Source of the DNA: a virus
Lineage: Duplodnaviria; Caudoviricetes
DNA: 56,357 bases
Virus record (IMG/VR): IMGVR_UViG_3300049982_000330
Location: 1 to 56,357 of that record
Reading direction: 5' to 3' (one strand)
Shown: positions 25,724 to 44,340 of the stretch, piece after piece
How the letters are laid out: every line of letters begins with the position of its first letter
Position numbering within the stretch: the stretch's first letter is position 1
The notes under the pieces: generated by a model
Told to the model about the DNA's origin: nothing
Seen by the model: the letters and a program-made list of their open reading frames with translations, nothing else
Databases searched by the model: none
Position numbers and translations under genes: made by a program

Positions 25724-25730
25724 GATCTCC

Positions 25731-27790: not shown

Positions 27791-27809
27791 CGGGCCGCCC
27801 TCCCTCTTA

Positions 27810-27855
27810 GGTGGTTGACCACCCGACAGTAACAGGTCTAAGGTGGTTAACCACC
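27810..27855. promoter_or_regulatory. Pair of palindromic operators in a divergent promoter region
   Basis: GGTGGTTGACCACC (27810) and GGTGGTTAACCACC (27842), 32 bp apart. Confidence 0.75.
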
Positions 27856-27949
27856 CCCTCTTTTGAGGGAGAGGCGCCTAACCGCAAGACGGCCCCCGCC
27901 AGCGATTGCAGCGCACGGCGAGGGCCTTGATCGGAAGCAGGTCCGACCC

Positions 27950-28297: not shown

Positions 28298-28536
28298 AGG
28301 CCGAGCGCCGACCGGCCGCCACGGTCACGATCAGCGTCGAGGACCTCGACCGGCTGACGGCGGCAGCTACCACGCTGTTCGGCATCGCCAGCGAGCTCCG
28401 CATCCGCTGGGAGAACGCCGAGATCCAGGCCGGGGGCGTCCCGGACGGCATCAATCCCGCATGGGTCGCGCAGAAGCGCGCCGCCGACGGCGACCAGCTG
28501 GCCGCCCGCCGGGCCTCGAAGGGTGGCGTGCGATGA
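28294..28536 (+). CDS. Hypothetical protein
   Basis: Stop/start coupling on both sides. Confidence 0.6.
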   Translation: MKAERRPAATVTISVEDLDRLTAAATTLFGIASELRIRWENAEIQAGGVPDGINPAWVAQKRAADGDQLAARRASKGGVR

Positions 28537-28697
28537 CCACGGCCGAAGAGATCGCGTTCGTCGACGCCATGACGGCCGACGAGCTGCGCCAGGCGCTGAT
28601 GCACCTGGCCGGGTACTCACCCGACGGGTTCGCCGACGCCATCGCCAAGGTCCAGCGTGACCGCGCCTGGCGTGCCGAGATCGAGGTGTCGAAGTGA
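28533..28697 (+). CDS. Small hypothetical protein
   Basis: ATGA coupling; MTTAEEIAFVDAM... Confidence 0.55.
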   Translation: MTTAEEIAFVDAMTADELRQALMHLAGYSPDGFADAIAKVQRDRAWRAEIEVSK

Positions 28698-29464
28698 AGG
28701 GGGCCCGTGCGATCCGCTGGTCGACGGCGGCCGTCGTGGTGGCGCTCGCGGCCGTCGCCGCCGTGGTGTCCTACCGGCACGCCCTGGAGGTGATCCGCGC
28801 CCACGGCGAGAGCGGGTTCACCGCCTACCTGGTGCCGCTCACGGTCGACGGCCTGATCTACGCGTCATCCATGGTGCTGCTCGACGCCTCCCGGCGCGGC
28901 GTCCGTGTGCCGCCTCTGGCGCGGTGGACGCTCGCTCTCGGCATCGTGGCCACCCTCGCCGCCAACGTGGCTCACGGGCTCGCTCACGGCGTCGTCGGGG
29001 CGGTCGTGGCCGCGTGGCCCGCCGCCGCGTTGGTGCTGTCGTATGAACTGCTGATGGCGCTGATCCGGGGTGCGGCCGTACGGGCGACTGTCCAGAATTG
29101 GACAGTCGAGGCGGTAGCCGCACCCGTGGCCCGGGTGCCGGTGAGTCGCGAGGTGTACGACTGGGCAGCCGAGCGGGACCTGTTCGACTCCGTCGCGGCC
29201 GATGCACCCGGCGCTGTACCCGCCGACGGGCCGCCCGCCGTGGACGTACCCGGCGATGCACCCGAGGCCGACCCCGATCCCGAGTGCGCACCCGGCGACG
29301 TACCCGAGCGCGATCCGCTGTACCCGGAGGCCGTTCGCTTGTACCTCGGCGACGTCGCGAGCGGCGCCGTCCCGCCGCTGCGAGCCATCAAGGCCGACCT
29401 CGGTATAGGCCAAACCAAGGCGCAACAGGTGCAGGGCTATCTACGGACGCTCGCCGCGAGCTGA
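28694..29464 (+). CDS. DUF2637-like membrane protein with C-terminal HTH
   Basis: AAVVSYRH, PLTVDGLI, TLAANVAH, VAAWPAAAL; C-terminal PPLRAIKADLGIGQTKAQQV. Confidence 0.8.
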   Translation: MKGARAIRWSTAAVVVALAAVAAVVSYRHALEVIRAHGESGFTAYLVPLTVDGLIYASSMVLLDASRRGVRVPPLARWTLALGIVATLAANVAHGLAHGVVGAVVAAWPAAALVLSYELLMALIRGAAVRATVQNWTVEAVAAPVARVPVSREVYDWAAERDLFDSVAADAPGAVPADGPPAVDVPGDAPEADPDPECAPGDVPERDPLYPEAVRLYLGDVASGAVPPLRAIKADLGIGQTKAQQVQGYLRTLAAS

Positions 29465-29473
29465 ACGAGTCGA

Positions 29474-29511
29474 GCAGAATGCCCCGCCGGTCGACCGGCG
29501 GGGCATTCTGC
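29474..29511. terminator. Perfect 38-bp palindrome / terminator
   Basis: GCAGAATGCCCCGCCGGTCGACCGGCGGGGCATTCTGC. Confidence 0.75.
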
Positions 29512-29539
29512 GTTCCGGGGTAAGGAGTCTTCAAGGCTC

Positions 29540-29594
29540 TTGACAGCACTCCGGAGGAGGCTGACGATGCGCTGGTCCGAGAAATCTCCGGAAA
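29540..29594 (+). promoter_or_regulatory. Putative promoter and operator
   Basis: TTGACA-N17-GACGAT followed by AGAAATCTCCGGAAA, a motif repeated at 31195. Confidence 0.55.
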
Positions 29595-29616
29595 CACTCA
29601 GGAGAGGGAAAGATCG

Positions 29617-29832
29617 ATGCGCCTACAGTTCCTTGGCAAGGAAACCGACGGCGGTAACTCCCCTACGCTGTGGGACACCGACGGCGACGAGTACGTGATC
29701 CAGGGCTTTACGGTGACCGACGCCGAGGCCCTCGCGGACATCGGCGCCGTTCCTGATGGGGAGCTGATAATCCGCATCCCCAAGCGCCTGATGGACCACC
29801 TGCCGAAGGAGACACATGGACCTGCTGACTAA
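29617..29832 (+). CDS. Small protein of the DUF6879/XRE cassette
   Basis: MRLQFLGK...SPTLW...YVIQG pattern; RBS. Confidence 0.8.
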   Translation: MRLQFLGKETDGGNSPTLWDTDGDEYVIQGFTVTDAEALADIGAVPDGELIIRIPKRLMDHLPKETHGPAD

Positions 29833-30343
29833 GGAGGAATTCCAGCAGAGATTCCACGGGTCGAAGCGGGCCTTCCACCTCGAACTACGGGACGCCTACA
29901 ACGTCACCGCCGAGGATGAGCCGTTCCGGAAGTGGCAGGCCGGCGAGTACGACGACCACGCGTGGCGGCGCCCGTGGCAGGCATTCATTCGCCAGGTGAC
30001 AGGCGCCGGCTGCGCGATGCAGCGGGTCAGGGTCGTCACCGTGCCCCATGCGCGCTACACGCGATGGCTGCTCGACATCGCCGGCGACAACGTTGAGGCC
30101 GGGGAGGACATCCGATACCTGCCACGACACCTCGCCGCGGACATCGACTTCCCCCCGGAGGACTGCTGGTTGTTCGATGACGACCAGCTGGTGCTCAGCG
30201 TGTTCCCGGGCGACGGCCGGGCCGGTGCGTTCGTCGCCGAGACCGATCCCGACCTGATACGCAGGTACCTGATCGCCCGCGATCTGGTGTGGGAGCGCGC
30301 GATCCCGCACGCCGTTTATGTTCACGCGCAGCGCCGCGCCTGA
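29816..30343 (+). CDS. DUF6879-like protein
   Basis: AFHLELRDAY, RVRVV, NVEAGEDIRYLPR and DCWLFDD motifs. Confidence 0.85.
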   Translation: MDLLTKEEFQQRFHGSKRAFHLELRDAYNVTAEDEPFRKWQAGEYDDHAWRRPWQAFIRQVTGAGCAMQRVRVVTVPHARYTRWLLDIAGDNVEAGEDIRYLPRHLAADIDFPPEDCWLFDDDQLVLSVFPGDGRAGAFVAETDPDLIRRYLIARDLVWERAIPHAVYVHAQRRA

Positions 30344-30358
30344 TTCGCCGCTTCGACC

Positions 30359-31195
30359 GTGTCACAGCCGACCGACCAGGCCCGCCAGGCGCTAGGTTCC
30401 CGCCTCCGTGAGATGCGCCAGGACGCGCGGCTCACGGGCCGGGAGCTCGCCGCGCGAGCCGGTTGGCGGCCCCCGAAGGTGTCCAAGCTGGAGCACGGGC
30501 AGCAGAACGCCAGCGAGGAGGACATCCGTACCTGGTGCCAGGTGTGCGGCGCGCGGGACCAGATCCCTGAGCTGATCGCCACGGTGCGCGCGATCGAAGC
30601 GCAGTACATGGAATGGCGACGACAGATGCGGGGAGGTCAACGCCGCGTCCAGAGCGTGCTCCGCGCCGAGGATCTCTCCACCCGCCTGTATCGGATCTTC
30701 GAGCCGTTCCACATCCCCGGCTTCCTCCAGACCCGCGATTACACCCGGGTCATCATGGCGCGCAGTGCCCATTTCTACGAGGCACCGAACGACCTGGAAG
30801 CCGCTGTAGCGGCCCGTCTGGGGCGTCAGACCATTCTTCGAATGGGTGACCGCCGGTTCCACATCGTCGTGGCCGAGCAGGCCCTGTACACCCAAGTGGG
30901 CGGCCCTGAGGTGATGCGCGGCCAGCTCGCCCACCTCCTGGACGAGATGGCCGCGCTGCCCCGGCTGCGTCTCGGCGTCGTTCCCCGCGCCGCCGACTAC
31001 GAGCTCGGCCCCCACGCGGGTTACTGGATCTTCGACGCGCGGCTGGTCATGACGGAGACGGTCACGGCCGTTCTGAACGTCACCCAGCCGCGAGAGGTCG
31101 CCATGTATGAGCGGCACTTCGACGGAATAGCGGGCCTCGCGGTGTACGGCCAGGCGGCCGCTGCCCGAATTACGGCAGCGAGCGAAGCTCTCTAA
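30359..31195 (+). CDS. XRE HTH plus DUF5753-type regulator
   Basis: LREMRQDARLTGRELA...VSKLEHG; IPGFLQT.DY; EQAL. Confidence 0.9.
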   Translation: MSQPTDQARQALGSRLREMRQDARLTGRELAARAGWRPPKVSKLEHGQQNASEEDIRTWCQVCGARDQIPELIATVRAIEAQYMEWRRQMRGGQRRVQSVLRAEDLSTRLYRIFEPFHIPGFLQTRDYTRVIMARSAHFYEAPNDLEAAVAARLGRQTILRMGDRRFHIVVAEQALYTQVGGPEVMRGQLAHLLDEMAALPRLRLGVVPRAADYELGPHAGYWIFDARLVMTETVTAVLNVTQPREVAMYERHFDGIAGLAVYGQAAAARITAASEAL

Positions 31196-31321
31196 GAAAT
31201 CTCAGGAAATCTCGTTGAGTGTGACGCGTGTGCCTGCCGACGATCGGGGGGACGAAAGGCGGGCCCGCCTGGCGCTGATGACGACCAGACGAGCCCTTGA
31301 TCGGACGCGGAGGTCCGACCC

Positions 31322-31531
31322 ATGGCACACCTTAAAGCCACCTCAGTGGACGCGCCCCCAGGATGGCGGGTGTTCCGAAGCGATAAGGGCCGCTTCTGGG
31401 CCACCCGCGAGGAGCCCTACCCCGAGCCCGAGCAAACCGCGTGGCGGACCGTGGACGCCGACGACTTGACCACGCTGTGCCGGACCATCGCCGAGCAGGA
31501 GAGCCGAGCCGAGCTGGGAGCGTCATCATGA
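31322..31531 (+). CDS. Small hypothetical protein
   Basis: GGAGG RBS; GWRVFRSDKGRFWATR...RTVDADD. Confidence 0.7.
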   Translation: MAHLKATSVDAPPGWRVFRSDKGRFWATREEPYPEPEQTAWRTVDADDLTTLCRTIAEQESRAELGASS

Positions 31532-31809
31532 GCGAGTCCGATCTCCACGTCGTGGACACCGACCAGATCAGGGAACAGAAGATCGCCGCCCTGGCCCAGA
31601 CCTACCCGGCGTGGCAGATCCGGTTCGTCGGATCCACCATCGCGGGCCCCATGGGCTGGTGGGCCATGCGGCACGCTCCGCTGACCGAGGCCCAGCGCGC
31701 GGCCGGCCTGGTGCCGTCCATCGCCCGCGGCGACATCGTGTCCCTGGTGATGGAACTCGACGTCCAGGATCAGATCGCCCATCGGACCGGCTACGCGGCC
31801 CGCCCATGA
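31528..31809 (+). CDS. Hypothetical protein
   Basis: ATGA coupling; YPAWQI...WWAMR. Confidence 0.65.
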   Translation: MSESDLHVVDTDQIREQKIAALAQTYPAWQIRFVGSTIAGPMGWWAMRHAPLTEAQRAAGLVPSIARGDIVSLVMELDVQDQIAHRTGYAARP

Positions 31810-32159
31810 GCAGGCCCGGCGGTCGTCCCGCTTCCCAGGTGGAACCCGCCGGGCCGCCGCCGTGCCCAGCGTGGTGCGACTTCCAGCACTCCGAGACTGA
31901 GCCGAGCTGGCGCTGGTACTGGCGCACACATCTCGGCATGGGTCGTACGGTGCCGCTGACGGCGATGCCTTCGGTGGCCAGCCACATCCCGATGCTGATG
32001 TACGACCTCATCCAGCAGCCCGACGGCGAGCCGATGATCCGGATGCGCCGCGACGGCCGTCCGCTGGTGCGGCTCACCTCCGGCGAGGCTCAGCGCCTCG
32101 CCATGGGCCTGGTCGCGCTCGTCGACCAGGCCCGCGCGGAGGCCGAGGGCAGGGCATGA
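31806..32159 (+). CDS. Second CPxWC-motif protein
   Basis: CPAWCDFQH...H; LTSGEAQRLA. Confidence 0.6.
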   Translation: MSRPGGRPASQVEPAGPPPCPAWCDFQHSETEPSWRWYWRTHLGMGRTVPLTAMPSVASHIPMLMYDLIQQPDGEPMIRMRRDGRPLVRLTSGEAQRLAMGLVALVDQARAEAEGRA

Positions 32160-32265
32160 GCGCGCATGCCAGCACCCCGGTTCAAGGGACCTGCTCGTCT
32201 CGTGGCGGCCGAACGCTCGGCCCGCATGGACGGCCCCGGGCGCGGCCGGGCCGCCATGGTCGCGG

Positions 32266-32574
32266 TCATGGCGGGGGCGGGCCGTGGTGCTCGGTGAAGA
32301 AGCGGAGCTCCTCCCACGCCTCCGGGTCCAGCGCGGCGGCCTCGTTGAGCACCTCAGCGAGCAGGCGGCGGGGCAGGCCCGACTCTTCCCACACCGCCCC
32401 GCACGAGCACCGTACGTAGCTCGGATCGTCGCCTGTCTCGTCGAGCAGCACCGACACGGTGAGGATGTGCCGCTCACCGCAGGCCGGACAGCCGATGGGG
32501 CCGTTCAGCCCGATGGCCCCGTTCACCAGGTGCAGGGTGACCTGGGTGATCTGGTGTTCTGCGTGCCCGCTCAC
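32266..32574 (-). CDS. Zinc-ribbon protein coupled to the satellite TMP
   Basis: CPACG...CSCG; GTGA overlap. Confidence 0.65.
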   Translation of the reverse strand: MSGHAEHQITQVTLHLVNGAIGLNGPIGCPACGERHILTVSVLLDETGDDPSYVRCSCGAVWEESGLPRRLLAEVLNEAAALDPEAWEELRFFTEHHGPPPP

Positions 32575-35500
32575 CTCGAACCTCGTTCGACTTGGCGCAG
32601 CCCCTCGCGGATCTGCATGAGGATCTCCCGCCCCGCCACGGTGTGGTTCTCGAAGTTGAGCTTGGCCCCGTTGATGTTGAGCACGAAGTCTCCCTGAATG
32701 GTCGGGCCGCCTCCACGGCCGCTACTTGACGAGGTGCTCACGCTGGCGCCGGACACACTCAACGTCGACCCGCCGGAGGTCGCGAGCGCCGGCCCGCCCC
32801 CGCCGGCGAACCCGAACGTCGGTTGTATGTCCATGGTGGCCATGTCGGCCATGCCGCGAACGGCGTCGAGCACGTGCCCGTACCCGCCTTGGATGCCGCT
32901 GGCCAGGCCCATGGGGATGAACTTGCCGATCGCGGCGAACACCTTGGACGGCGAGGCGATGCCGAGGATCTTCTTGGCCCAGTCGGGCAGCAGGGCGCCG
33001 AACAGGTTCCCGATCTGCTGCTTGAACCAGTTCCACATGCCGACGATGCCGTTCCACAGCCCCGTGATCATGTTGTGGCCAAGCGTGCCGAACATGCCGG
33101 CGAGGTCGCCGATCGCGCCGAGGATCAACCCGGGCAAGCCCTTGAGCCAGGTCACCAGGTCGTTGAACTTGCTGATGGCCCAGTCCTTGGCCTTGCCGAA
33201 CCACTCGGCGAACATGGCGGGCAGGCCCGAGATCCACTTGACGATCCCGTTGACCAGGTCGGGAATGATGCTGTGGCCGATCAACGTGTCGTACAACCAG
33301 GTGAACCAGCCGACAATGGTTTTGATCTTGTCGGCGATGTCGGCGGCGAATGTCGTGATGGCCGGGATGACCACCCCAAGGATCACGCCGACGAGCTTCA
33401 CGAACATGATTTGGACCGGCGCCCACAGCCTGATCAACTCGGCGACCATCGGCAGCATCGGCGTCATCGCGGTGATGAGCTGGACGGCGGCGCCTGCCAG
33501 CTGCACCACGACCGGCGCCAACACCTTGATCCACTCGGCCATGACCGGCAGCAGCGCCTTCACGAGCTCACCCACCACCGGCAGGATCGGCGTGAGCGCT
33601 GTGATCAGCGACAGGAACGCGCCGATCAAGCCAGGCAGCAAGGGGGCGAGCTCCTGCAGATACTTCACCAGCGCCAACCCGATGGTTTGCGCGAGCTCCG
33701 ACAGCACCGGCAGCAGCGGCACGACGGCCTGCACCAGCAGCGAGAGCCCGGTCACGAAGTTCGTCGCGATCAATCCGGCGATCTGCGCGATGATCGGGAT
33801 CAGCGGGGTGATAGCCGGGACCAGCCCGGACACCAGTTGGGTGATCAGTGCGGCGATCTGCGGGAGCAACGGTGCGAGCGCCGGAACCAGGGCGTTGATC
33901 AACGTCGCGGCCAAGCCGAAGATCAGCGGCACGATCGGCGACAACGCGACCACGGCCTGCGCAAACGCCCCGACGAGCAGCTGAATCGACGGCAGAATCG
34001 CGATGATCCCCGACGCCAGGCTCGTGGCGATCAGCAGCACCAGCTGGCCGAGCACCGGCAGCAGCGGGGCGAACGCGGGCACCAGCTGGCCGATGACCGT
34101 TGCCGCCAGCCCGATGATCAGCGGGATGATCGGGGCGAGGGCGGTCAGCATCGAGGCGAACCCGCCGACGAGGACCTGAATCGGGCCCAACATCGCCTGC
34201 ATCCCGGCGGCCAGGCTGGAGGCGATCAGCGTGGCCAGCTGGGAGATCACGGGCAGCAGCGGGGACAGGGACTGCAGGATCTCGCCGAAGACGCGGACCA
34301 TCAGCTGGATCGACGGCAGCATCGCCTGTACGCCTGCAGCAAGCGTGGTGGCGATCAAGGCCGCGAGCTGGCCGACCACCGGTAGCAGAGGCGCGATGGC
34401 TGCGAGGATCCCGCCGAGCGCTGCTCCGATCGGGGCGAGCGCCGGCGCGAGCGACGCGAAACCCGTAGCCACCGCGCCGATGAACGCCTGCAAGCCGGGC
34501 AGGATCGCTGCGATGGCGGGACCGATGGCGGCGATCAGGGGCTGCACGGACGCGAAAGCGGCGCCGATGGCCTGACCGAGGGGAAGCATCGCGGGCGCCA
34601 GGGCGGCGACCGCCTGGCCGATGCCGGCGAACACCGCGATCATCCCCGGGCCGATCGCCGCGACGGCGGGACCGAGCGCGGTGATCGCCGTGGCGAGCAC
34701 CGGGCCGACCATTTGAGCCAGCTGTGCGATGACGGGGGCGAGCTGGGCGATGACGCCCACAACGGCGGTGATCACCGGCAGGAACGATTTGGCGATGGCG
34801 CTCAGCGCGGTGAACACCGCGACCAGCGTTGACTGGCCCTGCGCTGATTTGAGGAACTGGTTCATCCCGTCGAGCAGCTGGCCGATGACGCCGAGTGCGC
34901 TCGCGCCAGAGGCCTGCATGGCGGTGAAGACCGACCGCACGATGCCGCCGACGTCGCCGACGATCGAGCCGAGCTGCTTGAAGACCAGCAGGGCGTTGTC
35001 CATCCATTGCAACGCCTGACCGCTCGCCGCGGCGTTGTACATGAACAGGCCGAACCGCTGCGCCACGGCGGCGATCCCGGGCGCCAGGGCGGCCAGCCAT
35101 CCGGCGCCGACCACACCGAGGTCTCTGAAGCCGTTGAGCAGGGGCGTCAGGGCGGGGATGAAGGCGGTCACCGCGTCATGCAGCGAGGTGAACACGCTGC
35201 GGATCGCCCAGATCGACTCCGATGACCGGGCGAATTCGAGGACCTTCAGCGCGGCCTGGCCGAACTGGCCGGCCACGCTCTCCACCCCGTCGGTCAGGGC
35301 GTTGAGGACGGGCAGCAGCGACCACATCTGGCCGACCAGCGGCCCGAACAGGGCATCCTGAGCGGCGAACTTGAGGCCCTGGAAAGCGGGCGCCATTTGG
35401 AAGAGCTCGTACGCCACCTGGCCGGCGGATGCGCCCAGCCCGGCGGCGGCCGTCATGAACTTGTCGAAATCGCCGGAGATGGCGGCCGCGAAAGCGTCCC

Positions 35501-35975
35501 CGACGCCGCTCAATGCGAGCTTCAGGGTGCCCAGCGCGGCGGCGCCGAGCAGTATCCCTCCCGGCAGAGCGGCGAGGATCCCCACAGCGGGCGCCAGCGC
35601 GGACACCAGGCCGATCGCACCTGAGCCGGCCGTGGCCATCGCAGCCGACAGGACGGCCATCTTCGCCGCGGCGGTGACCAGCGAGACGCCCACACTGACC
35701 AGCGAGCCCACGAAGCTCGCGACGTGGGAGGTTGCCTGGGAGACAGCCGTACTCAGGAGGGCGAACACGGCGCCGATGCCGCTGGAGCCACTGCCGAGAC
35801 GGAGGAAGCCCGCGTTCATCGAGCTCGAGATGCCGTCGAGGCTGCGGAAGCTGCGCTCGGTCCTGTCCGCCTGCCGCGCGACCTTCTCCAGGTCTCGGTT
35901 CACCTTGCCAATCCCGCGATCGGTGTCAGCCATCACCCCAAGGCGGATCATGAGGTTCTTGATTGAGTTCGCCAT
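32571..35975 (-). CDS. Tape measure protein (satellite copy, 1134 aa)
   Basis: True start ATG 35975 with AGAAAGGG RBS; collinear with the helper TMP. Confidence 0.93.
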   Translation of the reverse strand: MANSIKNLMIRLGVMADTDRGIGKVNRDLEKVARQADRTERSFRSLDGISSSMNAGFLRLGSGSSGIGAVFALLSTAVSQATSHVASFVGSLVSVGVSLVTAAAKMAVLSAAMATAGSGAIGLVSALAPAVGILAALPGGILLGAAALGTLKLALSGVGDAFAAAISGDFDKFMTAAAGLGASAGQVAYELFQMAPAFQGLKFAAQDALFGPLVGQMWSLLPVLNALTDGVESVAGQFGQAALKVLEFARSSESIWAIRSVFTSLHDAVTAFIPALTPLLNGFRDLGVVGAGWLAALAPGIAAVAQRFGLFMYNAAASGQALQWMDNALLVFKQLGSIVGDVGGIVRSVFTAMQASGASALGVIGQLLDGMNQFLKSAQGQSTLVAVFTALSAIAKSFLPVITAVVGVIAQLAPVIAQLAQMVGPVLATAITALGPAVAAIGPGMIAVFAGIGQAVAALAPAMLPLGQAIGAAFASVQPLIAAIGPAIAAILPGLQAFIGAVATGFASLAPALAPIGAALGGILAAIAPLLPVVGQLAALIATTLAAGVQAMLPSIQLMVRVFGEILQSLSPLLPVISQLATLIASSLAAGMQAMLGPIQVLVGGFASMLTALAPIIPLIIGLAATVIGQLVPAFAPLLPVLGQLVLLIATSLASGIIAILPSIQLLVGAFAQAVVALSPIVPLIFGLAATLINALVPALAPLLPQIAALITQLVSGLVPAITPLIPIIAQIAGLIATNFVTGLSLLVQAVVPLLPVLSELAQTIGLALVKYLQELAPLLPGLIGAFLSLITALTPILPVVGELVKALLPVMAEWIKVLAPVVVQLAGAAVQLITAMTPMLPMVAELIRLWAPVQIMFVKLVGVILGVVIPAITTFAADIADKIKTIVGWFTWLYDTLIGHSIIPDLVNGIVKWISGLPAMFAEWFGKAKDWAISKFNDLVTWLKGLPGLILGAIGDLAGMFGTLGHNMITGLWNGIVGMWNWFKQQIGNLFGALLPDWAKKILGIASPSKVFAAIGKFIPMGLASGIQGGYGHVLDAVRGMADMATMDIQPTFGFAGGGGPALATSGGSTLSVSGASVSTSSSSGRGGGPTIQGDFVLNINGAKLNFENHTVAGREILMQIREGLRQVERGSR
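33775..35642. repeat. About 1.9-kb direct repeat of 10074-11941 (offset 23,701)
   Basis: Identical shadow ORFs at constant offset; scattered substitutions mostly toward the high-coordinate end. Confidence 0.9.
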
Positions 35976-35977
35976 CG

Positions 35978-36223
35978 TCACCCTTTCTCTGGTTCTCGTC
36001 GGGCCACCTGCCGGCTCGCTCGGGCGCACTCCTGCGAGCACGTGCGCCGACGGCGGCCACCCGACCAGGTGGCCTCGAAGGTCTGGCCGCACACCGAGCA
36101 CGTCGCCTCGTGCCGCGCGCGACGGCACGGCCGGCAGACCCGCAACCCGGCGGGCAGCGAGGTGCTGGTCGACCAGAGCAGGACGCCGCACATCGCGCAC
36201 GGGACATCGGGCCGCCGAGCCAT
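35978..36223 (-). CDS. Multi-CxxC zinc-finger protein
   Basis: CAMC, CRPC, CSVC, CSQEC; GGAGG RBS before ATG 36223. Confidence 0.65.
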   Translation of the reverse strand: MARRPDVPCAMCGVLLWSTSTSLPAGLRVCRPCRRARHEATCSVCGQTFEATWSGGRRRRTCSQECARASRQVARREPEKG

Positions 36224-36301
36224 CCCGTCACCTCCCTGTCGCCGACTACGCCGGGTGACCAGCACGCGGTCACTCTGTGCCATCTCTTCGCCCTCACTCT
36301 G

Positions 36302-36436
36302 AGTGATGATCTTGAGGCCGATTACTCTGTGAAGTGGGGAGGGAAAAGGGCGCTAAGGGCGCGGGTCCCCCGTGATCGTTGATCTACGTCGCGAGGGTGC
36401 CCCCTCCGGCGCTATGACCTGCGAAAACGTCGCCGC
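36302..36436. repeat. Satellite copy of the putative cos/packaging site
   Basis: 132/135 identical to 46227-46361, same orientation, non-coding. Confidence 0.85.
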
Positions 36437-36964
36437 ATTGTCGCTGAGGGTCGATTGCATGCTGTTTATATGTTTGATCTTCGTCACTGAGCGTGTTTGG
36501 CGCAGTGTCACGTAACGTCATCACTTACGTCATCGCTTACGTGTTGATCTTCACGTTGTTTGCGTTGTGTGATCGGTGACTGGCTGGCCACCGCGCCATC
36601 CGCACCGCTCGGCCTCGGCTCGCGCGCATCAGCACGACGTGACGCTGTCGCGCCAGGTATGCACAGATGATCACGACTGCGAGACGCGTGAGCAGCGAGC
36701 GTCGAGCGGCGACTGTGGAAGCACGATCGCTGTGACGTACATCGTCGGCTGATGCATCGAGCTGCGTGTGATCGCTGTGTGCGAGCCATGGTGGCTGTGG
36801 TGGATAGGTGGCAGAACCGATGCTGATCAGCTCGGCGGGCGCGGTGTTCGAGCGTGACCGGCAGCGCCTGTGCCGCGTGCGGCTCGGCCGCCAGGAGGAC
36901 AGGGCCCACCGAGTGTGCCGGGCCCCCAAAGGTCGCCACCGCTCATTGGCGAATGGGCCCCGGG

Positions 36965-37495
36965 TCATGCCGTCTCCCGTGCGGCGGCCCGACGCTCGAG
37001 GTGGCACCGCTCCTCAATCCGGATCAGGGTCCGGCGTGCTGCCCCGAGGCGCTCGCCCGCCGCGCTCCGCGCCCTGTAGAGCCGACTCTCCGCAGCTTCC
37101 AGGACGTGACGCCGTGCCTGTGTGGGTTCCCTCGCGGGGTAGTCCGCCGGGGAGAGCATTGCGCCCCTCGGCCCCGTGTTCGCCCCCGCGGCCGTGGCCT
37201 CGATCAGCGCCCGTTGGTGCGCCATATCGGCCATGGTGTAGCTCGCGAGCGCCTCGTCGACGGCCTGCTGCGCCTCGGCTATCTGCGGCGCGAACCGGTC
37301 GATCACCTCCTGCTCGGCCTCGCCGATCGGGTCCGGCGCCGGACCGAGCAGCTTGCTCGGGTCGATGACCAACCCGTCGCGCCAGCAGAACCAGCCCGAG
37401 GGCATCGGGCGGCACCGCTTGGCCCCATATCCGACCGGCCTCCCGCAGCGATGGCACCGCTCGCTCGCGGCCTTGTTCTCGGCTGACAGCCTCAC
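36965..37495 (-). CDS. Hypothetical protein (Cys motif plus helical region)
   Basis: GTGA coupling to the upstream gene. Confidence 0.55.
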   Translation of the reverse strand: MRLSAENKAASERCHRCGRPVGYGAKRCRPMPSGWFCWRDGLVIDPSKLLGPAPDPIGEAEQEVIDRFAPQIAEAQQAVDEALASYTMADMAHQRALIEATAAGANTGPRGAMLSPADYPAREPTQARRHVLEAAESRLYRARSAAGERLGAARRTLIRIEERCHLERRAAARETA

Positions 37496-38496
37496 CTCGT
37501 CGCCTCCAGCCAGTAGGTGGCGCGCGCCATTTCCTCGTAGGCGCGCGCGGCATCCTCGTCGCCGCCGGCCATGTGCCTGACCTCGTGCCCGGTGATCGCG
37601 TCCAGCTCAGCCGCCTGGCACAGCGCGTCGGCGTTCAACCAGACTTCACCCGCCCAGGACACCGCCTTGCCGAGCAGCTGGTCACTCGGCCAGCCGAAGC
37701 CCGGCCGGGCGGACTCGCCGTACATCTCCAGGTAGTCGCGTTCGCCGTCGGTCTCGCTGCGGAACCAGCGCAGCCGAGGCCGCGGGGCGACCTTCAACCG
37801 CTCGCAGTGCTTGGTAAGCGCCGAGTCGACGATGACGCGTTTCCAGGCCGGAACCTCATCCGCCGCGAGTTCGACGTACCAGCTCGACACGTGCCGCTCC
37901 GCTTCCATCAGGACCGTGCGCGCGTGCTCGCGTTCCTCAAGATCCCGAAGGTTCCGCTTCACGATTTCGCAGGTGTTGACGACGGCGAGCCGCTCCATCC
38001 ACGCCCGGGTCTCGGCGTCGAGTTCGCCGGGCGGCCTGTTGTGCTTGACGGCGAGGGTCCGCGTGCCCACGCCAGCCCCGCGAAGGACTGGGCTGACCTC
38101 GAACACCTGTACCTCTTCGATGAAGCGCACCCGCTGGCCGGCGAACTCGCCGAACGACTCCTTGGTCACGTTGTAGCCGTAGCTCCACTCCTGGAGGCCG
38201 CCGAGCTGCTTGACGACGGTGAAGGTGTCGCGACCGGCCATGGTGTCGAGGAAGAACCGGCCTTCCAGGATCGCCTCATTGGCGGTCTGCCGGATGGTGC
38301 CCAGCCCGACCGGAAGCTCGCCGTCCCAGGTCCTGTGGCCGTAGCTGGAAATCACGACGGGCGCACCGTCGGCGAACGCTCCCGGCCGTGTCACATCCCG
38401 ATCGGAGTCGATCGCGTTGAACGTCGAGAAGATGGCCCGCACTTCGCCCTTGGACTCGTCCTTGATCTCCAGCAGGAGACTCTTGGTGTCCACCAT
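37492..38496 (-). CDS. Prohead protease paralog fused to an HEXXH domain
   Basis: First ~150 aa align with the helper protease; C-terminal ITGHEVRHMAG. Confidence 0.85.
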   Translation of the reverse strand: MVDTKSLLLEIKDESKGEVRAIFSTFNAIDSDRDVTRPGAFADGAPVVISSYGHRTWDGELPVGLGTIRQTANEAILEGRFFLDTMAGRDTFTVVKQLGGLQEWSYGYNVTKESFGEFAGQRVRFIEEVQVFEVSPVLRGAGVGTRTLAVKHNRPPGELDAETRAWMERLAVVNTCEIVKRNLRDLEEREHARTVLMEAERHVSSWYVELAADEVPAWKRVIVDSALTKHCERLKVAPRPRLRWFRSETDGERDYLEMYGESARPGFGWPSDQLLGKAVSWAGEVWLNADALCQAAELDAITGHEVRHMAGGDEDAARAYEEMARATYWLEATR

Positions 38497-38886
38497 TCAC
38501 CCCTCCCTTCTGCGCGCGGCCTCGGCCGCGACGGCGTCGCGCTCGAAGACCCACCGGCCCCGCTCCAGGCGTCCGCCGAGTTCGGCGGCGAGCTGGCGCA
38601 CGCGGCGCGCGGTGAGTCCGAGCAGCGCCGCGACCTGATCGGCGCTCAGAGGCGAGGATCGCCCGATTTCCGCGATCGGCGTTTCCGAGCTTCCGTTCGG
38701 CAGGTCAGGGCGTTTCCGCGCCCGTCCGGCTCGCTCCAGGTCACCGATCGCGGCCAGCAGCTCGGCACGCGCGTGCGGCGCCACCCGATCGAAGTAGCCC
38801 TTCCGCGCCAGGTCGCGAAGGGCGACGCCGGCGAGCTGCGCGATCTGCCCGGACAGGACCGCGGCGTCCTGGACGTAGGCCACCAA
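38497..38886 (-). CDS. HTH DNA-binding protein (excisionase/AlpA-like C-terminus)
   Basis: LSADQVAALLGLTARRVRQLA...GRWVF. Confidence 0.75.
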   Translation of the reverse strand: MVAYVQDAAVLSGQIAQLAGVALRDLARKGYFDRVAPHARAELLAAIGDLERAGRARKRPDLPNGSSETPIAEIGRSSPLSADQVAALLGLTARRVRQLAAELGGRLERGRWVFERDAVAAEAARRREG

Positions 38887-38887
38887 C

Positions 38888-39055
38888 TCACCTGCCGTCC
38901 GCGGCTCGGACGGGCCAGCGCTCGCTAAAACAAAGGACGTGCATCCAGTCGCCTCGGGCGCCGATGCGGCAGATCCGTTCCCCGATGTGGATCGCGCGAC
39001 GACACAGCGGACAACGGCTCTCCCTGCGCGCCTTCCGCGCGTGGGTGGCGATCAT
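38888..39055 (-). CDS. Small zinc-finger protein
   Basis: CPLC...IHIGERI...WMHVLC. Confidence 0.6.
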   Translation of the reverse strand: MIATHARKARRESRCPLCRRAIHIGERICRIGARGDWMHVLCFSERWPVRAADGR

Positions 39056-39888
39056 GCCGACCTCGCCATGGCCCGGCACTGCGGGCACTGCGGCAGACCG
39101 GTGTCCGGGCGCGCCTGGTCGCCGCCGGGTGTGCCGTGCTCGCACGGCGGCATCTGACCGATCGAGGCCAACCACACGCCGATGTCGGACCGGCCGCGCG
39201 CCGTACGTACCCGCACGAGCACCGGGGCCAGGTCCCCGTGATGGGCCATGGTGCGCAGGAGGCCGGGAAGCGATCGGACCTTGTTCTCAGCCTCGATCGT
39301 CTTGATGACGCTCTCTGCCTCCTCCTCGGTGGCGCCCGTGGCGGCCGTCACGATCCGTACGGCTCGCGCCCGCGCGGATGAGGAGTTCTTGAGGATCTCT
39401 GAGGAGATGGGTCCCCCGCTTGGGGGAGCTTCAGCACTTGAAGCTCTCCCGCTTGGGGGAGCTTCGGGACCAGGCGGGGGAGCTTCAGCACTCGAAGGTC
39501 TCCCGGATGGGGGAGCTTCAAGCTCTCCCGCTTGGGGGAGCTTCAGCGCCGGGCATTCGCCGGGCCTCGGAATGTAGAACTCCATGGCATGGCCGTTGCA
39601 GGCGAAGAGCATGCGCCCCCGGTCGTCAGTGACCGCCTGGCCCTGCTTGTCGCGGACCGGCACGCGGAGCTCGATGCCGTTCGCTCCGAGTTTGCCCAGC
39701 ACCTTGCCGAGCTGCTTGAGGTCTGCAAAGCCCGTCCGGCGGATCACCGTCGCGATCACCGCTCCGCCGTACGCGCGGCGAGTCCGCTCGTTGGCCTGGT
39801 CGGCGATCTCCAGGGCCACCAGCCGCTCGCCGGAGGACAGGCCAGGCGGCAGATGCTCGGCGAGCCAGCGCCGCAGCTCGTAACCCAT
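39052..39888 (-). CDS. Putative replication initiator
   Basis: LSSGERLVALEIADQAN wHTH-like N-terminus, internal iterons, C-terminal CEH...CPQC; start ATG 39888. Confidence 0.7.
   Translation of the reverse strand: MGYELRRWLAEHLPPGLSSGERLVALEIADQANERTRRAYGGAVIATVIRRTGFADLKQLGKVLGKLGANGIELRVPVRDKQGQAVTDDRGRMLFACNGHAMEFYIPRPGECPALKLPQAGELEAPPSGRPSSAEAPPPGPEAPPSGRASSAEAPPSGGPISSEILKNSSSARARAVRIVTAATGATEEEAESVIKTIEAENKVRSLPGLLRTMAHHGDLAPVLVRVRTARGRSDIGVWLASIGQMPPCEHGTPGGDQARPDTGLPQCPQCRAMARSA
39422..39544. repeat. Five GGGGGAGCTTC direct repeats (putative ori iterons)
   Basis: Copies at 39422, 39455, 39476, 39509 and 39534. Confidence 0.8.
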
Positions 39889-40169
39889 CAGGTCTCGCCG
39901 GCTTCCTGCTCTTCGCGCTCCCGGCGAAGCGCCTCGGCACTGATCTCCACCAGGGCCCGGCGCCGCGGCGAGGTGTTCATCTGGTCGCCGTGCATCGCGG
40001 GCGGCAGTCGGCCGTTCCACATATCCGGCGTACTGAAGAACAGCGGCGCCTGCGTGAGCCGGGCGCGCAGGTCGACGTACGCGAGCACCCGGGCCCGGCG
40101 CGCGGCGCACTCAGCTCGCTCATCGGCAGCGGCCTTCCTCAGCAGCGCTGCCCACTCCTGGCCCTTCAC
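39888..40169 (-). CDS. Hypothetical protein
   Basis: Coupled within the operon. Confidence 0.6.
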   Translation of the reverse strand: MKGQEWAALLRKAAADERAECAARRARVLAYVDLRARLTQAPLFFSTPDMWNGRLPPAMHGDQMNTSPRRRALVEISAEALRREREEQEAGET

Positions 40170-40414
40170 GGCGTCACGCCCGCGAGCGTGCCGCGCTGCC
40201 GGGCGATCTGACCCAGCTCCTCGAGTTGGGTCAAGCGGTCAAGGACGCGTTGCCGATCAGCTGGCCGCAACGACCGCAGCGCGGCGGCAGCAGACCGCCC
40301 ACAGGAGTTTGCCCGCGCTCTGTCGGACCGGCGCTGTACGCTGACACCATCGTCGTTAACGCGTTTCGAGGCCGCTCCTGCCCGGGGGCGGCCTTCGGCG
40401 TTCTCAGGCCACAT
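40166..40414 (-). CDS. Hypothetical protein
   Basis: GGAGG RBS; coupled to the next gene. Confidence 0.45.
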   Translation of the reverse strand: MWPENAEGRPRAGAASKRVNDDGVSVQRRSDRARANSCGRSAAAALRSLRPADRQRVLDRLTQLEELGQIARQRGTLAGVTP

Positions 40415-40646
40415 GGCGCACCTCCCCGCCCGCGTCCTGGTGGCCGAGGAGCACCTGAGCGAGGCGCACGCGTTGCTCGGGAGTCGGACTCGGTTCTGAA
40501 CCGATGAGCCGCTGGATGTAGTCCTCTGCGGCTAGGACCTTGAGGTCCCGGCGCTGGGTTTCAACCAGCTCAAGCCGATCCGGATGATGGCGCCTGGTGG
40601 CTGCGTGCTGTGCCCGTAAGCGGCGGCGCTCAGGAGAAAGAGACAT
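40404..40646 (-). CDS. Putative recombination directionality factor (phiRv1 Rv1584c-like)
   Basis: RRDLKVLAAEDYIQRLIGSEPSPTPEQRVRLAQVLL matches my recollection of the phiRv1 RDF pattern; downstream of the serine integrase. Confidence 0.65.
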   Translation of the reverse strand: MSLSPERRRLRAQHAATRRHHPDRLELVETQRRDLKVLAAEDYIQRLIGSEPSPTPEQRVRLAQVLLGHQDAGGEVRHVA

Positions 40647-40795
40647 GGATCCCCCAGAAGGCAAATGCCTTGTAAGGGGCTCCTCATACGTGGCCGTCTC
40701 GGGAGCCGGTTTCGCGTCGCCGGGTAGACCAGGCCCCACGTAGGCCCCGCGACACGCCCTGCCGTGCACAGGACAGTAGCAAGTCACCCAGGCGT

Positions 40796-41095
40796 TCACA
40801 TGCCATATCGGCTAGGAGGCTGGAGAGATTCAGTCGGACCGTAACTCTCGTCCAGATTGGAATGATCAACACGAGAAAGCCCCGGACCTTGGTCCAGGGC
40901 TTCGTCTCTGCACTGAGCACAATGGCACTGCGGCGGAGGATCGACGGGCAGGCCGGCGGCTATCTTCTGCCGTCGCCGTTCCAGCGCCACGGCGAGCATG
41001 CGCACCGTCCGATGCACCCTCGCCGTCATGCCAGCGGAGTTTTCCTCGGGATCGTGGGTCTCAGACATGGCTGGAAATATCCTTTCCTTGCGCAT
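40796..41095 (-). CDS. Hypothetical protein
   Basis: ORF with CHCAQC; weak support. Confidence 0.35.
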   Translation of the reverse strand: MRKERIFPAMSETHDPEENSAGMTARVHRTVRMLAVALERRRQKIAAGLPVDPPPQCHCAQCRDEALDQGPGLSRVDHSNLDESYGPTESLQPPSRYGM

Positions 41096-41098
41096 AGC

Positions 41099-41131
41099 AA
41101 AGAGCCGCGAGGGATATGCTCGCGGCTCTTT
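41099..41131 (-). terminator. Terminator downstream of the integrase
   Basis: 13-bp stem AAAGAGCCGCGAG/CTCGCGGCTCTTT. Confidence 0.75.
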
Positions 41132-41154
41132 CGCTGGGTTTAGGTGCAGCGCGC

Positions 41155-42849
41155 CTACCGGCGCCAGGTGATTGTCATTCGGTCAGTGTTCGCCGTTGGG
41201 CGACGATTCTTCCCCGGGCCGGGCTCGTACCCCAGTTCTTGGATGGCGGCTCTCACACGCTTCTCCAGTTCGGGTGACTTGGCCTTTCCCAGGATTACCA
41301 GACTGACGAACCCCTGACTGACACCAGCGTGCTCGGCAACGTCCTTCTGCGTCACGCGCTTGGTGGAGTGAAGGGACCGATTCTCGTAGTGGATCGTGAC
41401 CTTTGCGATCCAGTCATCGACGAATTTCCGTTGCTCGTCGAGATGCATCTCCGGCCACAAGGTCCGAAGCTCCTCGGGGTCGATGTCCCCGACCGGTGCA
41501 GGCAGCTCGGCGAGCTCGCGTTCGAACGTCTGAGCCTCCTTCATCAGCCCGTCATTCATGACGTTGAACTGCTCCGTGGTGAGCTTGCGCCCGTTCCACA
41601 TCTGAGCCAGCTCACCGCGCCGAAGGTCGAGGGCATCGAGTTTCTTCACCAGGTCTTCGCGGCGCGCGAAAAAACTGTCCTGTGCGAGCAGTCGGGCGGC
41701 GTTGTACTCCTTCAGCTTCTTGAAAAGGTGAACGGCTACGTGTCCTTCTGCCGCCCTGGCGTCGATGGTCGTCCGGCCACATCCGCCGGTCACCTTCGTG
41801 TCGCAGGCGTAGTAGGCGTAGTCGCCGCTGGGCCGCGCCTGCATTGGCTTGTCACAGACCCCGCAGAACGCCCGGTAACCGGTCAGCAGGTAGGCACGCC
41901 CCGACCTGCGTCGCGTCTTCTTCCGCGAACCGATGACGGCGCACAGCGCCCGCCATGTCACCTCGTCAAGGATGGGGGGCCAAGTCGCTTTACCCACGAT
42001 CTCGCCTCGGTGGACACGCAGCCCGGCAACGCACGGCGCGGTCAGGAAGTCGGCAACGCTCGTGGCAACGAACCGGCCGCCGTGCTTGCCTCGCAGGCCC
42101 CTGCTGTTAAGCCACGCGGCTACGTGCGCCAGGCCCCATCCGTTCAGGATGCGGTTGGCGCACTCCGTGATGATCTCGGCTTCCTCGGGCATGATCTCGG
42201 CGCTCTTGCGTCCCTGCTCATCGAGGACGGCCCGCCCGCCCGCAGGCCGCGGATTGTCGGCCTTCCACTGCCGCATCTCCTGGCCGCGGATCCTGGCCTG
42301 ATGGCGGCGCTCCTGCCACTCCTGGAGGCGGCTCTGCTCCTCCGGAGTCAGGATCACCTGCCGGTAGCCGTAGCCGAGACGGCCAGGCGGGCGCCCCTGT
42401 GAGGCAAGTTCGCTTTTTTTATCGAGGATGCGCTTCCGGAGCTGCTTGACCTCGTGCGCGCCGAGAACCGCATTGATCCCCGCGAAGACGCCGTCAACGT
42501 CGATGACGCCGTTCCGCTTGGTGTGAACCTCCGTGACACCAGCCTGCGCGAGGTCGGCCGCCAAGCTGAACCACTCGACCTCGCGGCGGGTGAGCCGGTT
42601 CTGCTCGACGGACCACAGGTGAGCAGACTCGCCGCGCCGGATCGCGTCCCGCATCTTCTCGAACTCCGGGCGAAAGACATCGTCCTTGGCCGCCGACAAG
42701 TCGTTGTCGGCGAAGACCTTGATCGGCATGTCGGGCCACCGGTCCCCGGCGTACTCGCGGCCCCACTTCTCCTGTGCCTGCACCCCCTCGGCGCGTCCTT
42801 GCTGGTCGGCGCTGATCCGGCAGTAGATGAAGACGTATCCCGTGCTCAT
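41155..42849 (-). CDS. Large serine recombinase (integrase) with LacI-type HTH insert
   Basis: YCRIS catalytic motif, DNDLSA, RPEF, NRLTR; zinc ribbon CGVC...YYAC...C; coiled coil. Confidence 0.95.
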   Translation of the reverse strand: MSTGYVFIYCRISADQQGRAEGVQAQEKWGREYAGDRWPDMPIKVFADNDLSAAKDDVFRPEFEKMRDAIRRGESAHLWSVEQNRLTRREVEWFSLAADLAQAGVTEVHTKRNGVIDVDGVFAGINAVLGAHEVKQLRKRILDKKSELASQGRPPGRLGYGYRQVILTPEEQSRLQEWQERRHQARIRGQEMRQWKADNPRPAGGRAVLDEQGRKSAEIMPEEAEIITECANRILNGWGLAHVAAWLNSRGLRGKHGGRFVATSVADFLTAPCVAGLRVHRGEIVGKATWPPILDEVTWRALCAVIGSRKKTRRRSGRAYLLTGYRAFCGVCDKPMQARPSGDYAYYACDTKVTGGCGRTTIDARAAEGHVAVHLFKKLKEYNAARLLAQDSFFARREDLVKKLDALDLRRGELAQMWNGRKLTTEQFNVMNDGLMKEAQTFERELAELPAPVGDIDPEELRTLWPEMHLDEQRKFVDDWIAKVTIHYENRSLHSTKRVTQKDVAEHAGVSQGFVSLVILGKAKSPELEKRVRAAIQELGYEPGPGKNRRPTANTDRMTITWRR

Positions 42850-43865
42850 AGTTCGGATTGTGGTTTAGGTGGGGTGCAACCGGCGAGCCCTTCGCTGAAG
42901 CCCACGATGACCGCCGGGACACCGGCCGCCGCCGCCATGCGCGTCTCGCCGGCGCCCTGGGTCGCCTTGAAGTCGAGCTGCTGCAGGTCCTTGCCGACGA
43001 CGTTCACATCCGCGCCGCCGCCCAGGTAGAGCGTCTTGTACGCGTTGTCGACGCCCCGGTGCTGCTCGTTCATGACGGCGATGAACCGCTTGAGCATGTC
43101 GGGCGTGACGCTGGCGTCCAGCGACACAACGACCTGCGGCGTCGCGCCGTTCTCGAAGAACGCGCCCTTGTGCTTGGTCGCCGCGAGGTCGGAGGAGATC
43201 TCCCGCAGGATCGGGGTGATCCAGCTCATGCCCCGCCAGTGGCACTCCGGGTCCGGGATGGGCGCGAAGTGCGCCACCTGCGACGGAAGGAGGAACCACT
43301 CCTTCTTCGTCATGGGCGGCGCGTAGAAGTAGCCGAGCACCTCGGCGTCCAGCGCGTGGCCGTACAGCTCCGGCTCGGACTTGGAGCCGCTGACGATCGT
43401 CACCCAGTCGGGCCGGAGCCGGCGCAGGCGGCCGGGCTGACCGGGCACCTTGGCGATGAAGGAGTTGCCCGCCAGGTCGACGTCTTGGATCTTCCTGGCC
43501 AGCAGGTCACCGGTGGTGCCGTTCGGCCACGGCCGCTCGAGCAAAGCGAGGTCCTTGTTGCCGAACAGGTCACCCGGGCGGCCGTTCTTGATCCGCCGGA
43601 ACTGGAAGCGGGCCTCGGAGAAGACGAGCATCCGGGTCGCCATCAGCGCGAAGATGGGGCCGTTGGACTTCGCGATGCCCTGGACGTAGCCCTCGAAGTC
43701 GTTCTCGATCTGCTCGCGCTCACCGTTCAGCGACGTCGAGCCGAGGAACGGGAAGCGCAGCCGATCGAGATCCCAGAAGTCTGGCTCCGACCAACCCTTC
43801 TGCGGATTCCGGGCAGGCTTACGCCCGCCACGGTGCGCCGCCGTGACCCGCTCGATCAGGCCCAT
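42846..43865 (-). pseudogene. Portal protein, 5' fragment (HK97-type)
   Basis: LLERPWPN, LAGN, LRPDWV, GMSW, FFENGATP and AAAAGVP motifs; follows terL. Confidence 0.92.
42850..42900. other. att junction at the portal 5' side (core CGG 42880-42882, minus strand)
   Basis: Portal-like sequence ends at ...GFSEGLAG, followed by 10 unrelated codons and a TGA overlapping the integrase ATG. Confidence 0.8.
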
Positions 43866-44330: not shown

Positions 44331-44340
44331 CTGCTCTCCC

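Follow-up and report, generated by a model that had tools for sequence, protein, structure and literature searches.

The 56,357-nucleotide virus record IMGVR_UViG_3300049982_000330 (Duplodnaviria; Caudoviricetes), analyzed here over its whole length and referred to as the window, has a G+C content of ~68% and carries at 37492..38496 a gene for a protein in which an HK97-type (S78) prohead protease domain is joined, through a helix, to a predicted zincin-like HExxH metallopeptidase domain. The gene lies in an element of ~15.6 kb that interrupts the portal gene of an HK97-like prophage. We suggest that this element is probably a satellite-like integrative element and that the co-resident prophage is probably its helper.

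A head-protease domain joined to a zincin-like domain

The fusion gene, its parts and the prophage head genes with which it is compared are as follows.

37492..38496, minus strand: S78 protease-helix-zincin fusion gene, 334 amino acids (aa); stop codon 37492-37494
38044..38496, minus strand: HK97-type (S78) prohead protease domain, residues 1-151, assigned by Pfam, BLASTP, fold and motifs
37885..38043, minus strand: linker and helix, residues 152-204; predicted by AlphaFold2 (AF2) as a low-confidence linker (142-154) and a long helix (161-203)
37495..37884, minus strand: predicted minimal zincin-like domain, residues 205-334; HEVRH at 37573-37587, invariant Glu314 at 37555-37557
25731..26828, minus strand: the prophage's own S78 prohead protease, 365 aa, paralog of the N-terminal domain of the fusion
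24461..25723, minus strand: prophage major capsid protein, HK97 type, with an N-terminal extension; the only Phage_capsid match in the window

The frame of the fusion gene is open from an ATG start, and its third-position G+C of 0.89 is typical of the real genes of the window. The start codon directly adjoins the stop of the preceding gene, and the stop overlaps the GTG start of the one that follows; the open reading frame (ORF) is intact and translationally coupled to both neighbors.

A preliminary description of this DNA had taken the N-terminal half for a paralog of the prohead protease of the resident prophage, and the database matches bear this out. Pfam Peptidase_S78 (PF04586) covers residues 19-148 with E 1.3e-8 and 35.6 bits, above the cut-off of 21, and PHROG family phrog_80, 'head maturation protease', matches with E 6.7e-22. 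In a BLASTP comparison with the prophage protease, 103 of 184 positions are identical (56%, E 1e-68) over residues 1-182 of the fusion and nothing beyond residue 182 aligns; the motifs FSTFNAIDSD, YGH, EWSYGY and FEVSPVLRGAG, which had been noted as shared by the two proteins, all lie inside the aligned block. The domain keeps His54 (YGH), Ser104 (EWSYGY) and the end motif ...GAGVGTRTLAVK151. The YGH His and EWSYGY Ser, which we take to be the catalytic residues on the basis of HK97 gp4 and MEROPS, are present in the prophage paralog and in all 21 full-length fusions described below. At the level of structure, the domain matches T4 gp21 (5jbl_A; Z 9.7, rmsd 3.0, 129 aligned, residues 5-139), herpesvirus proteases are among its matches (varicella-zoster virus protease, Z 6.7 in the structural aligner), and many phage prohead proteases in BFVD match it, down to E 1e-9. 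Against NCBIfam TIGR01543 the fusion scores 25.3 bits, below the equivalog cut-off of 59, as does the prophage's own protease with 20.4 bits.

The N-terminal 151 residues thus resemble the HK97-type S78 proteases (HK97 gp4, with the fold of T4 gp21 and herpesvirus assemblin), and sequence, motifs and fold make the domain an S78 member, whereas the place of its gene does not. Unlike the genes for such proteases, the fusion gene does not lie between portal and capsid genes; it is flanked by an HTH_17 gene and a gene for a 176-aa protein, and it is the prophage protease gene that sits directly before the only HK97-type capsid gene of the window. The fusion also differs from HK97-type proteases in having a helix and a zincin as its C-terminal module and in being carried by an element without a capsid gene. 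The statement in the preliminary description that there is no capsid gene accordingly holds for the inserted element; it fails for the window, which has one at 24461..25723.

The C-terminal half has no sequence match in Pfam, PHROG, NCBIfam or the PDB; for the latter, a single-sequence search was empty and a profile search gave only stromelysin-3 at E 1.2. AF2 models the whole fusion with a mean pLDDT of 86.6 and the C-terminal domain alone with 81.5 (pTM 0.74). In the model, a beta-rich protease domain (residues 9-138) is followed by the linker, the long helix and a compact alpha/beta domain (205-334), in which HEVRH, residues 304-308, is part of helix 295-309 and the last helix begins with Glu314. 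Glu314, only 6 residues past the second His of HExxH, is a candidate third metal ligand in this model. HExxH is present in all 46 family members, and W286, H304, E305, H308 and E314 are invariant in a 20-sequence alignment.

Foldseek against the PDB gave nothing at E <= 0.001; selecase ranked first with a probability of 1.00 and E 0.02. In an exhaustive structural aligner the C-domain model matched the M1 aminopeptidase catalytic domain (Z 8.7), selecase (8.3), HtpX (8.0), abylysin (7.7), Wss1 (7.2), BepA (7.2), Spartan (6.2) and PprI/IrrE (5.9), and nearly all of the top 33 matches, from Z 8.7 to ~5.4, were HExxH zinc hydrolases. The best BFVD match was an IrrE-like protein (E 3.6e-4), with SprT-like and polyvalent-protein entries also found, and the structure neighbors in the ESM Atlas were SprT-like, DUF6647 and ArdC-type metallopeptidase clusters. 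The minigluzincins selecase, abylysin and jannalysin reach Z 7.3-8.3 without any PDB sequence or profile match. Because these middling Z values combine with an invariant motif, the modeled domain is a zincin by motif and fold, an assignment that is firm at the fold level. The conservation of HExxH in 46 of 46 members, the invariance of H304, E305, H308 and E314 and the predicted zincin fold argue that the motif is not a chance occurrence. The preliminary description had staked its HEXXH metallopeptidase-like domain on a zincin fold; the AF2 model and the structural searches return that fold, with an invariant HExxH..E.

Any placement among zincin families would be tentative, since the homologs give only sub-threshold Pfam matches. 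The fusion does not match M78 (PF06114) at E <= 1; of 22 homologs scanned, two have M78 matches of 18.9 and 18.2 bits, short of the cut-off of 22. DUF6782 (PF20573) does not match the fusion either; in the homologs it mostly scores 16-24 bits against a cut-off of 27, P0052 alone reaching 27.2, and SprT-like matches are likewise sub-threshold. The domain is at most a candidate member of M78, SprT, DUF6782 or the minigluzincins. It resembles the minimal zincins as a whole (the minigluzincins selecase, proabylysin and projannalysin, the HtpX/M48 core, SprT/Wss1/Spartan, M78 and DUF6782) in its ~130 residues, its predicted beta-sheet and HExxH helix, the invariant Glu at the start of the following helix and fold Z scores of 5.9-8.3. 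It differs from them in lacking a sequence-level match, in the position of the Glu 6 residues past the second His and in the attached head protease.

An element inserted in the portal gene of the prophage

The limits of the element, the portal gene pieces and the annotated genes and segment of the element are as follows.

27250..42880 (no strand): inserted satellite-like element, ~15.6 kb; ends placed at the common CGG core
42881..43865, minus strand: portal gene, N-terminal piece; Pfam Phage_portal profile positions 35-241 of 321
26825..27250, minus strand: portal gene, C-terminal piece, directly before the prophage protease
41155..42849, minus strand: large serine integrase with a C-terminal LacI-type helix-turn-helix (HTH; residues 502-543), at the element edge
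38497..38886, minus strand: 129-aa gene with a weak HTH_17 match, directly upstream of the fusion; homologs in both other islands (see below)
36965..37495, minus strand: 176-aa gene, Cys-rich (zinc-ribbon-like) N-terminus, then helical; its GTG overlaps the fusion stop
36294..36487, minus strand: non-coding segment, 88% identical to 46219-46411, with a nearly identical core of ~150 bp
35978..36283, minus strand: 101-aa zinc-ribbon protein with a weak HNH-endonuclease PHROG match, directly after the shared segment
32571..35975, minus strand: tape measure protein (TMP) gene, 1134 aa, 77% aa identity to the prophage TMP at 8843..12238

The portal match of the truncated ORF at 42846..43865 ends at profile position 241 and is followed by foreign sequence, and the remainder of the portal gene lies 15.6 kb away; the insertion is codon-precise between ...SEGLAG and SSLNAG.... 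Among 86 loci with related proteases, 45 have a portal match and 38 hold both portal pieces. In all 38 the pieces abut in frame, and the window therefore has a clean insertion. Both junctions share a CGG core, around which the flanks (42881-42900 and 27230-27250) hold an inverted 8-bp pair, TTCAGCGA and TCGCTGAA. Logan contigs, an independent assembly of the one public run that holds this DNA (a soil run, probably the sample from which it came), cross the two junctions (25500-28023 and 36407-45000) without a mismatch. An assembly artefact at the 1.39-kb TMP repeat was considered and rejected because each insertion junction is on a single contig; the other path through the repeat would also orphan both portal pieces. 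Among the joints listed for this run, which are short-sided noise, none links 27250 to 42880, which speaks neither for nor against excision, and no RNA runs are listed as holding window DNA.

The integrase ATG lies 31 nt from the crossover, inside the element. Because it overlaps the stop of the truncated portal frame, the integrase could, while the element is integrated, be read from the prophage late operon. No relatives of the integrase were found in IMG/VR, and the integrases of cultured actinophages are at most 28% identical to it.

Pfam, PHROG and NCBIfam scans of the ORFs of the element detected no capsid, portal or terminase gene; in the Pfam and PHROG scans its only structural-type genes are the TMP gene and the protease domain. 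Several small genes are also present. A plus-strand block at 27863-31809 encodes DUF6907, DUF2637 and DUF6879 proteins and an HTH_31/DUF5753 regulator (Sco1979-like), and may be a cargo or control module.

In DNA and protein comparisons the element has exactly three stretches in common with the rest of the window: the protease domain (70% nucleotide identity), the TMP gene and the non-coding segment. The two TMP genes share an exact DNA core of 1391 bp (33814-35204 and 10113-11503) with diverged flanks, and an exact core between diverged ends argues for recent gene conversion between element and prophage. Logan contigs break at this repeat, and the depth there is roughly doubled. The prophage copy of the non-coding segment, at 46219-46411, lies just upstream of a 93-aa small-terminase-like gene and the large terminase gene (PHROG E 2.5e-74), with an HNH gene on its other side, such that the segment is downstream of the HNH gene and precedes the first gene of a late-type operon in both element and prophage. 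In HNH-dependent HK97-like phages, cos sites occupy this position. The segment also contains a sigma-70-like promoter site (TTCACA, 16 nt, GATCAT), and it could be a cos/packaging site, a late promoter or both. That a headless small integrative element has copied such a segment fits a phage satellite. The satellite setting implied by the preliminary description is strongly supported, both by this 15.6-kb serine-integrase insertion and by capsid-less islands in two other genomes.

The zincin family and its capsid-less islands

A HMMER search with residues 160-334 against 1.84 billion representative proteins returned 22 proteins at E <= 0.001. Three of these (P0004, P0018 and P0020) were dropped as long repeat proteins with many short matches and unrelated Pfam matches, and profile searches enlarged the family to 46 retained members: 21 full-length S78 fusions (313-366 aa) and one fragment, one ClpP-type fusion and about 20 stand-alone zincins. 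In the ClpP-type fusion, P0027, the same zincin stands at the C-terminus of an unrelated protease (PF00574, E 4.6e-26). The 21 proteins in which the S78 fusion architecture recurs are 28-59% identical, have invariant catalytic residues and all keep the end motif ...GAGxxTxTxxxK. The ordinary proteases of related phages and prophages (n = 86) have the same end motif followed by wholly divergent tails of 29 to 425 residues, and the C-terminal modules of this clade fall into at least two length classes (loci L001-L087). Since the 86 proteases diverge after the same motif, the fusion point is a natural module boundary of the clade. The zincin is absent from all 86, and 71 further IMG/VR loci yielded none.

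The identities of the N- and C-terminal domains disagree between pairs of fusions (43 and 57% for the window protein and P0002, 61 and 36% for the window protein and P0017, 38 and 65% for P0013 and P0017). In a quick tree, N-domains from fusions are interspersed with ordinary phage proteases over a branch supported at 99%, and groups in the C-domain tree mix both N-domain types with support of 81-92. These discordant identities and trees argue that the protease module was exchanged repeatedly, as would be expected if the module must suit different helpers.

The family is rare. No zincin domain was found in IMG/VR with the whole protein, the C-domain alignment, a back-translated HExxHxxGGDE pattern, P0044 or P0040 as queries, and a genome-contig scan surfaced only relatives of the N-domain. 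There was no zincin among the matches listed in scans of JGI metagenomes, tblastn found nothing in INPHARED phages or PLSDB plasmids, and the fusion is absent from the 50,697 cultured phage records searched. None of 401 genomes in the family of a Streptomyces genome (G002) and none of 401 in the order of a Nonomuraea genome (G001) has a match. A sample of 401 Actinomycetota genomes gave two strong matches, G910 and G951, and there were weak matches (E 3e-5 to 8e-4) in G1050 and G925; the orders and class around G951 and G910 yielded no further ones. The two strong matches lie in islands.

L287 (G910:C27) 1574-7456: island of ~5.9 kb with a tyrosine integrase; host genes follow
L286 (G951:C64) ~7300-15240: island of ~8 kb with a serine integrase, between host genes

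The G910 island encodes a weak replication-initiator match, a small terminase (Terminase_4), an HTH_17 protein, a 331-aa fusion that is 43% identical to the window fusion over 312 aa, and a 177-aa protein weakly similar to the 176-aa protein of the window, each of the two small genes following its fusion gene. On another contig (L293, G910:C6) the same genome holds a prophage with an intact portal gene and a capsid protein 56% identical to that of the window; the protease of this prophage is 57% identical to residues 7-186 of the island fusion. Island and prophage have in common a 62-bp segment, 90% identical, which lies upstream of two ORFs, named by position only in the prophage, that precede the portal gene.

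The G951 island has no capsid gene and encodes a primase, a helicase, an HTH_17-like protein, a stand-alone zincin, a ClpP-type protease, small proteins and WhiB. The ClpP-type protein, a 'head maturation protease' (phrog_94, E 3.5e-65), adjoins the zincin. No matching prophage protease was found in the G951 genome (best 32% identity). In all three islands a protein of ~128 aa with an HTH_17-like C-terminal domain is encoded before the zincin gene (38497-38886 in the window, 5538-5921 in L287 and ~10142-10498 in L286); it could be a DNA-binding protein for packaging or excision, or a regulator. In total, all three known contexts are small capsid-less integrase islands in which the zincin is fused to or beside a head-protease domain, and the zincins are a rare family marking capsid-less satellite-like islands of Actinomycetota.

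Possible roles of the fusion protein

Combining the domain assignments with the setting of the gene, we tentatively favor, at a little short of an even chance, the explanation that the fusion is a satellite-encoded dual protease aimed at helper procapsids. In this model, (i) the head-protease module would direct the fusion to procapsids of the helper capsid protein, which is where such head proteases normally act, (ii) the fusion would work there beside or in place of the helper protease, and (iii) the zincin would be a second catalytic payload, possibly released by cleavage at the conserved ...VK boundary. As the outcome, capsid maturation would be remodeled for the small satellite genome and/or the zincin would be placed inside particles. 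The ...VK boundary is conserved yet poorly ordered in the AF2 model, and may be a self-cleavage site. The preliminary description had suggested that the protein may compete in helper head maturation or size control, or may bring a protease cargo such as an antirepressor into particles; these roles are candidates, as is the one favored here. Procapsid entry, self-cleavage, the substrates and the helper role of the co-resident prophage are steps that we infer, starting from the observed domain identities, catalytic motifs, insertion, satellite-like contexts and module swapping and from the association of the zincin with two unrelated families of head protease. The fusion of the zincin to a ClpP-type head protease in P0027 favors, without proving, a capsid-linked role over a purely cytoplasmic one of the ImmA type.

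Several observations weigh against this explanation. The C-terminal tail of the HK97 protease reportedly holds a capsid-targeting signal (Duda et al., in 2013, are said to have found this), and because that tail is replaced in the fusion, procapsid entry is not assured. The N-domain is closer to the proteases of other proviruses (62-69% identity) than to the co-resident one (56%), of which it is not the sister in the quick tree. Stand-alone zincins of 129-254 aa make up ~20 of the 46 family members, and the zincin can therefore do without a fused protease. Surroundings are known for just three family members, those of the window, G910 and G951, and Z scores of 6-9 count as middling by the standards of the structural search tool itself.

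Alternatively, the fusion may stay unpackaged in the cytoplasm as an interference protease, mistargeted or dominant-negative, that cuts or traps helper capsid precursors and so lowers helper yield or defends the host. Known satellites often depress helper yield (PMC12822802, introduction), the fusion has another module in place of the helper-type C-terminal one and conserves both sets of catalytic residues, and it could self-associate through the long helix 161-203. These data agree with encapsidation too, however, and a pure decoy has no need of two conserved active sites; we regard this explanation as unlikely, albeit worth keeping in view. Somewhat less likely still is a regulatory protease of the ImmA/IrrE kind, in which the zincin would cleave the repressor of the helper or of the element and cause induction, the protease domain being secondary. 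Its appeal lies in the IrrE-like protein as best viral fold match, the Z of 5.9 to PprI/IrrE, the sub-threshold M78 matches in two of 22 homologs, the HTH gene before the zincin gene in all three islands and the finding that EPIP satellites of Mycolicibacterium induce their helper prophage without canonical antirepressors (PMC12822802). The fusion itself, however, does not match M78, and SprT/Wss1, minigluzincin and M1-type folds score equally high or higher. Moreover, a cytoplasmic antirepressor would need neither of the two unrelated head-protease families to which the zincin is fused or adjacent, nor the S78 catalytic residues that all 21 fusions keep.

The invariant catalytic motifs in both domains, which argue for enzymatic roles, also count against the idea that the fusion is a capsid-size or scaffold factor, that is, an internal scaffold forcing small shells for a 15.6-kb genome with catalysis dispensable. 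The element is about one third of the prophage-sized DNA in the window (15.6 kb of 56.4 kb), the gene is placed where a scaffold gene would follow a protease, with the helical 176-aa protein next, and other satellites redirect size by scaffold-like proteins or capsid-protein homologs, P4 Sid, SaPI CpmB and Ccm being examples; on balance we consider a scaffold role improbable. Late-region fragments (the protease domain and the TMP gene) without the genes normally between them could also be read as the remains of a decayed second prophage, the fusion being a functionless deletion product. The intact ORF coupled to both neighbors, the finding of the same architecture, its catalytic residues unchanged, in 21 proteins that are 28-59% identical and the second occurrence of the HTH-fusion-small protein cassette, in G910, speak against such a relic, which is already disfavored and has very little probability in our view.

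A more far-reaching version of the procapsid explanation is a new class of actinobacterial phage satellite, in which the protease module would smuggle the zincin into helper particles; once freed inside the capsid and ejected with the satellite DNA into the next cell, the zincin would cleave the repressor of a resident helper prophage or a host defense protein and switch the helper on, and the satellite seated in the portal gene, its integrase gene expressed from the late operon of the helper, would block helper virions until its excision. We think that this is about as improbable as the scaffold role. An effector enzyme traveling with the DNA in the particle, as proposed here, would be analogous to the metallopeptidases of 'polyvalent proteins', which Iyer et al. 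in 2017 reportedly described in phages and conjugative elements, and to the T4 internal proteins, which are delivered through the capsid. The structure neighbors of the zincin in BFVD and the ESM Atlas include polyvalent-protein and ArdC-type metallopeptidase entries. The presumed ticket into the capsid, in contrast to those systems, would here be a whole protease domain.

In its integrase, its lack of a capsid or large-terminase gene and its helper-like DNA at the start of a packaging or late operon, the element resembles satellites such as P4, PICI, cf-PICI and PLE. It differs from other satellites in that neither a capsid nor a scaffold gene was found in it and in that its dependence on a helper is predicted. 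The EPIPs of Mycolicibacterium (PMC12822802) are helper-inducing elements of 11 kb with genes for a serine integrase, an HTH protein and a tape measure protein. The element matches them in these three genes; it is unlike them in lying inside the portal gene of the helper and in having a protease-zincin fusion, which is not listed in the main text of that paper. Ando, MulchRoom and MiniFlayer, satellites from Streptomyces, have capsid genes of their own (PMC13587820). Elements that interrupt genes and are excised by serine recombinases are reported for SPbeta in spsM and skin in sigK (PMC4191935 and PMC5025042). The present element is similar in having a large serine recombinase at its edge and a gene split in frame that excision would rebuild, and differs in splitting the portal gene of a phage, itself a mobile element, rather than a developmental gene of the host.

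Both halves of the fusion are known kinds of protease; as for their union and its home in capsid-less islands, the literature searches made found neither a prohead protease-zincin fusion nor a satellite inside a portal gene. If the fusion indeed enters helper capsids, it would represent a novel means by which a satellite interferes with the head of its helper or travels in it, and would also provide a sequence marker for finding satellites of Actinobacteria, which to our knowledge are barely known. Repeated exchange of the protease module among lineages is suggestive of an arms race matched to the identity of the helper. Lodged in the portal gene of its probable helper, with which it has recently recombined, the satellite-like element deserves no less attention than the fusion: it would be a clean case of a parasite making the reproduction of its host conditional on its own excision, and the nesting is accompanied by recent TMP gene conversion.

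Elsewhere in the window, the tail region of the prophage encodes two paralogous Laminin_G_3 (concanavalin-like) proteins (14232-15419 and 16244-17515) and a fibronectin-III-bearing protein of 1123 aa (4870-8241).

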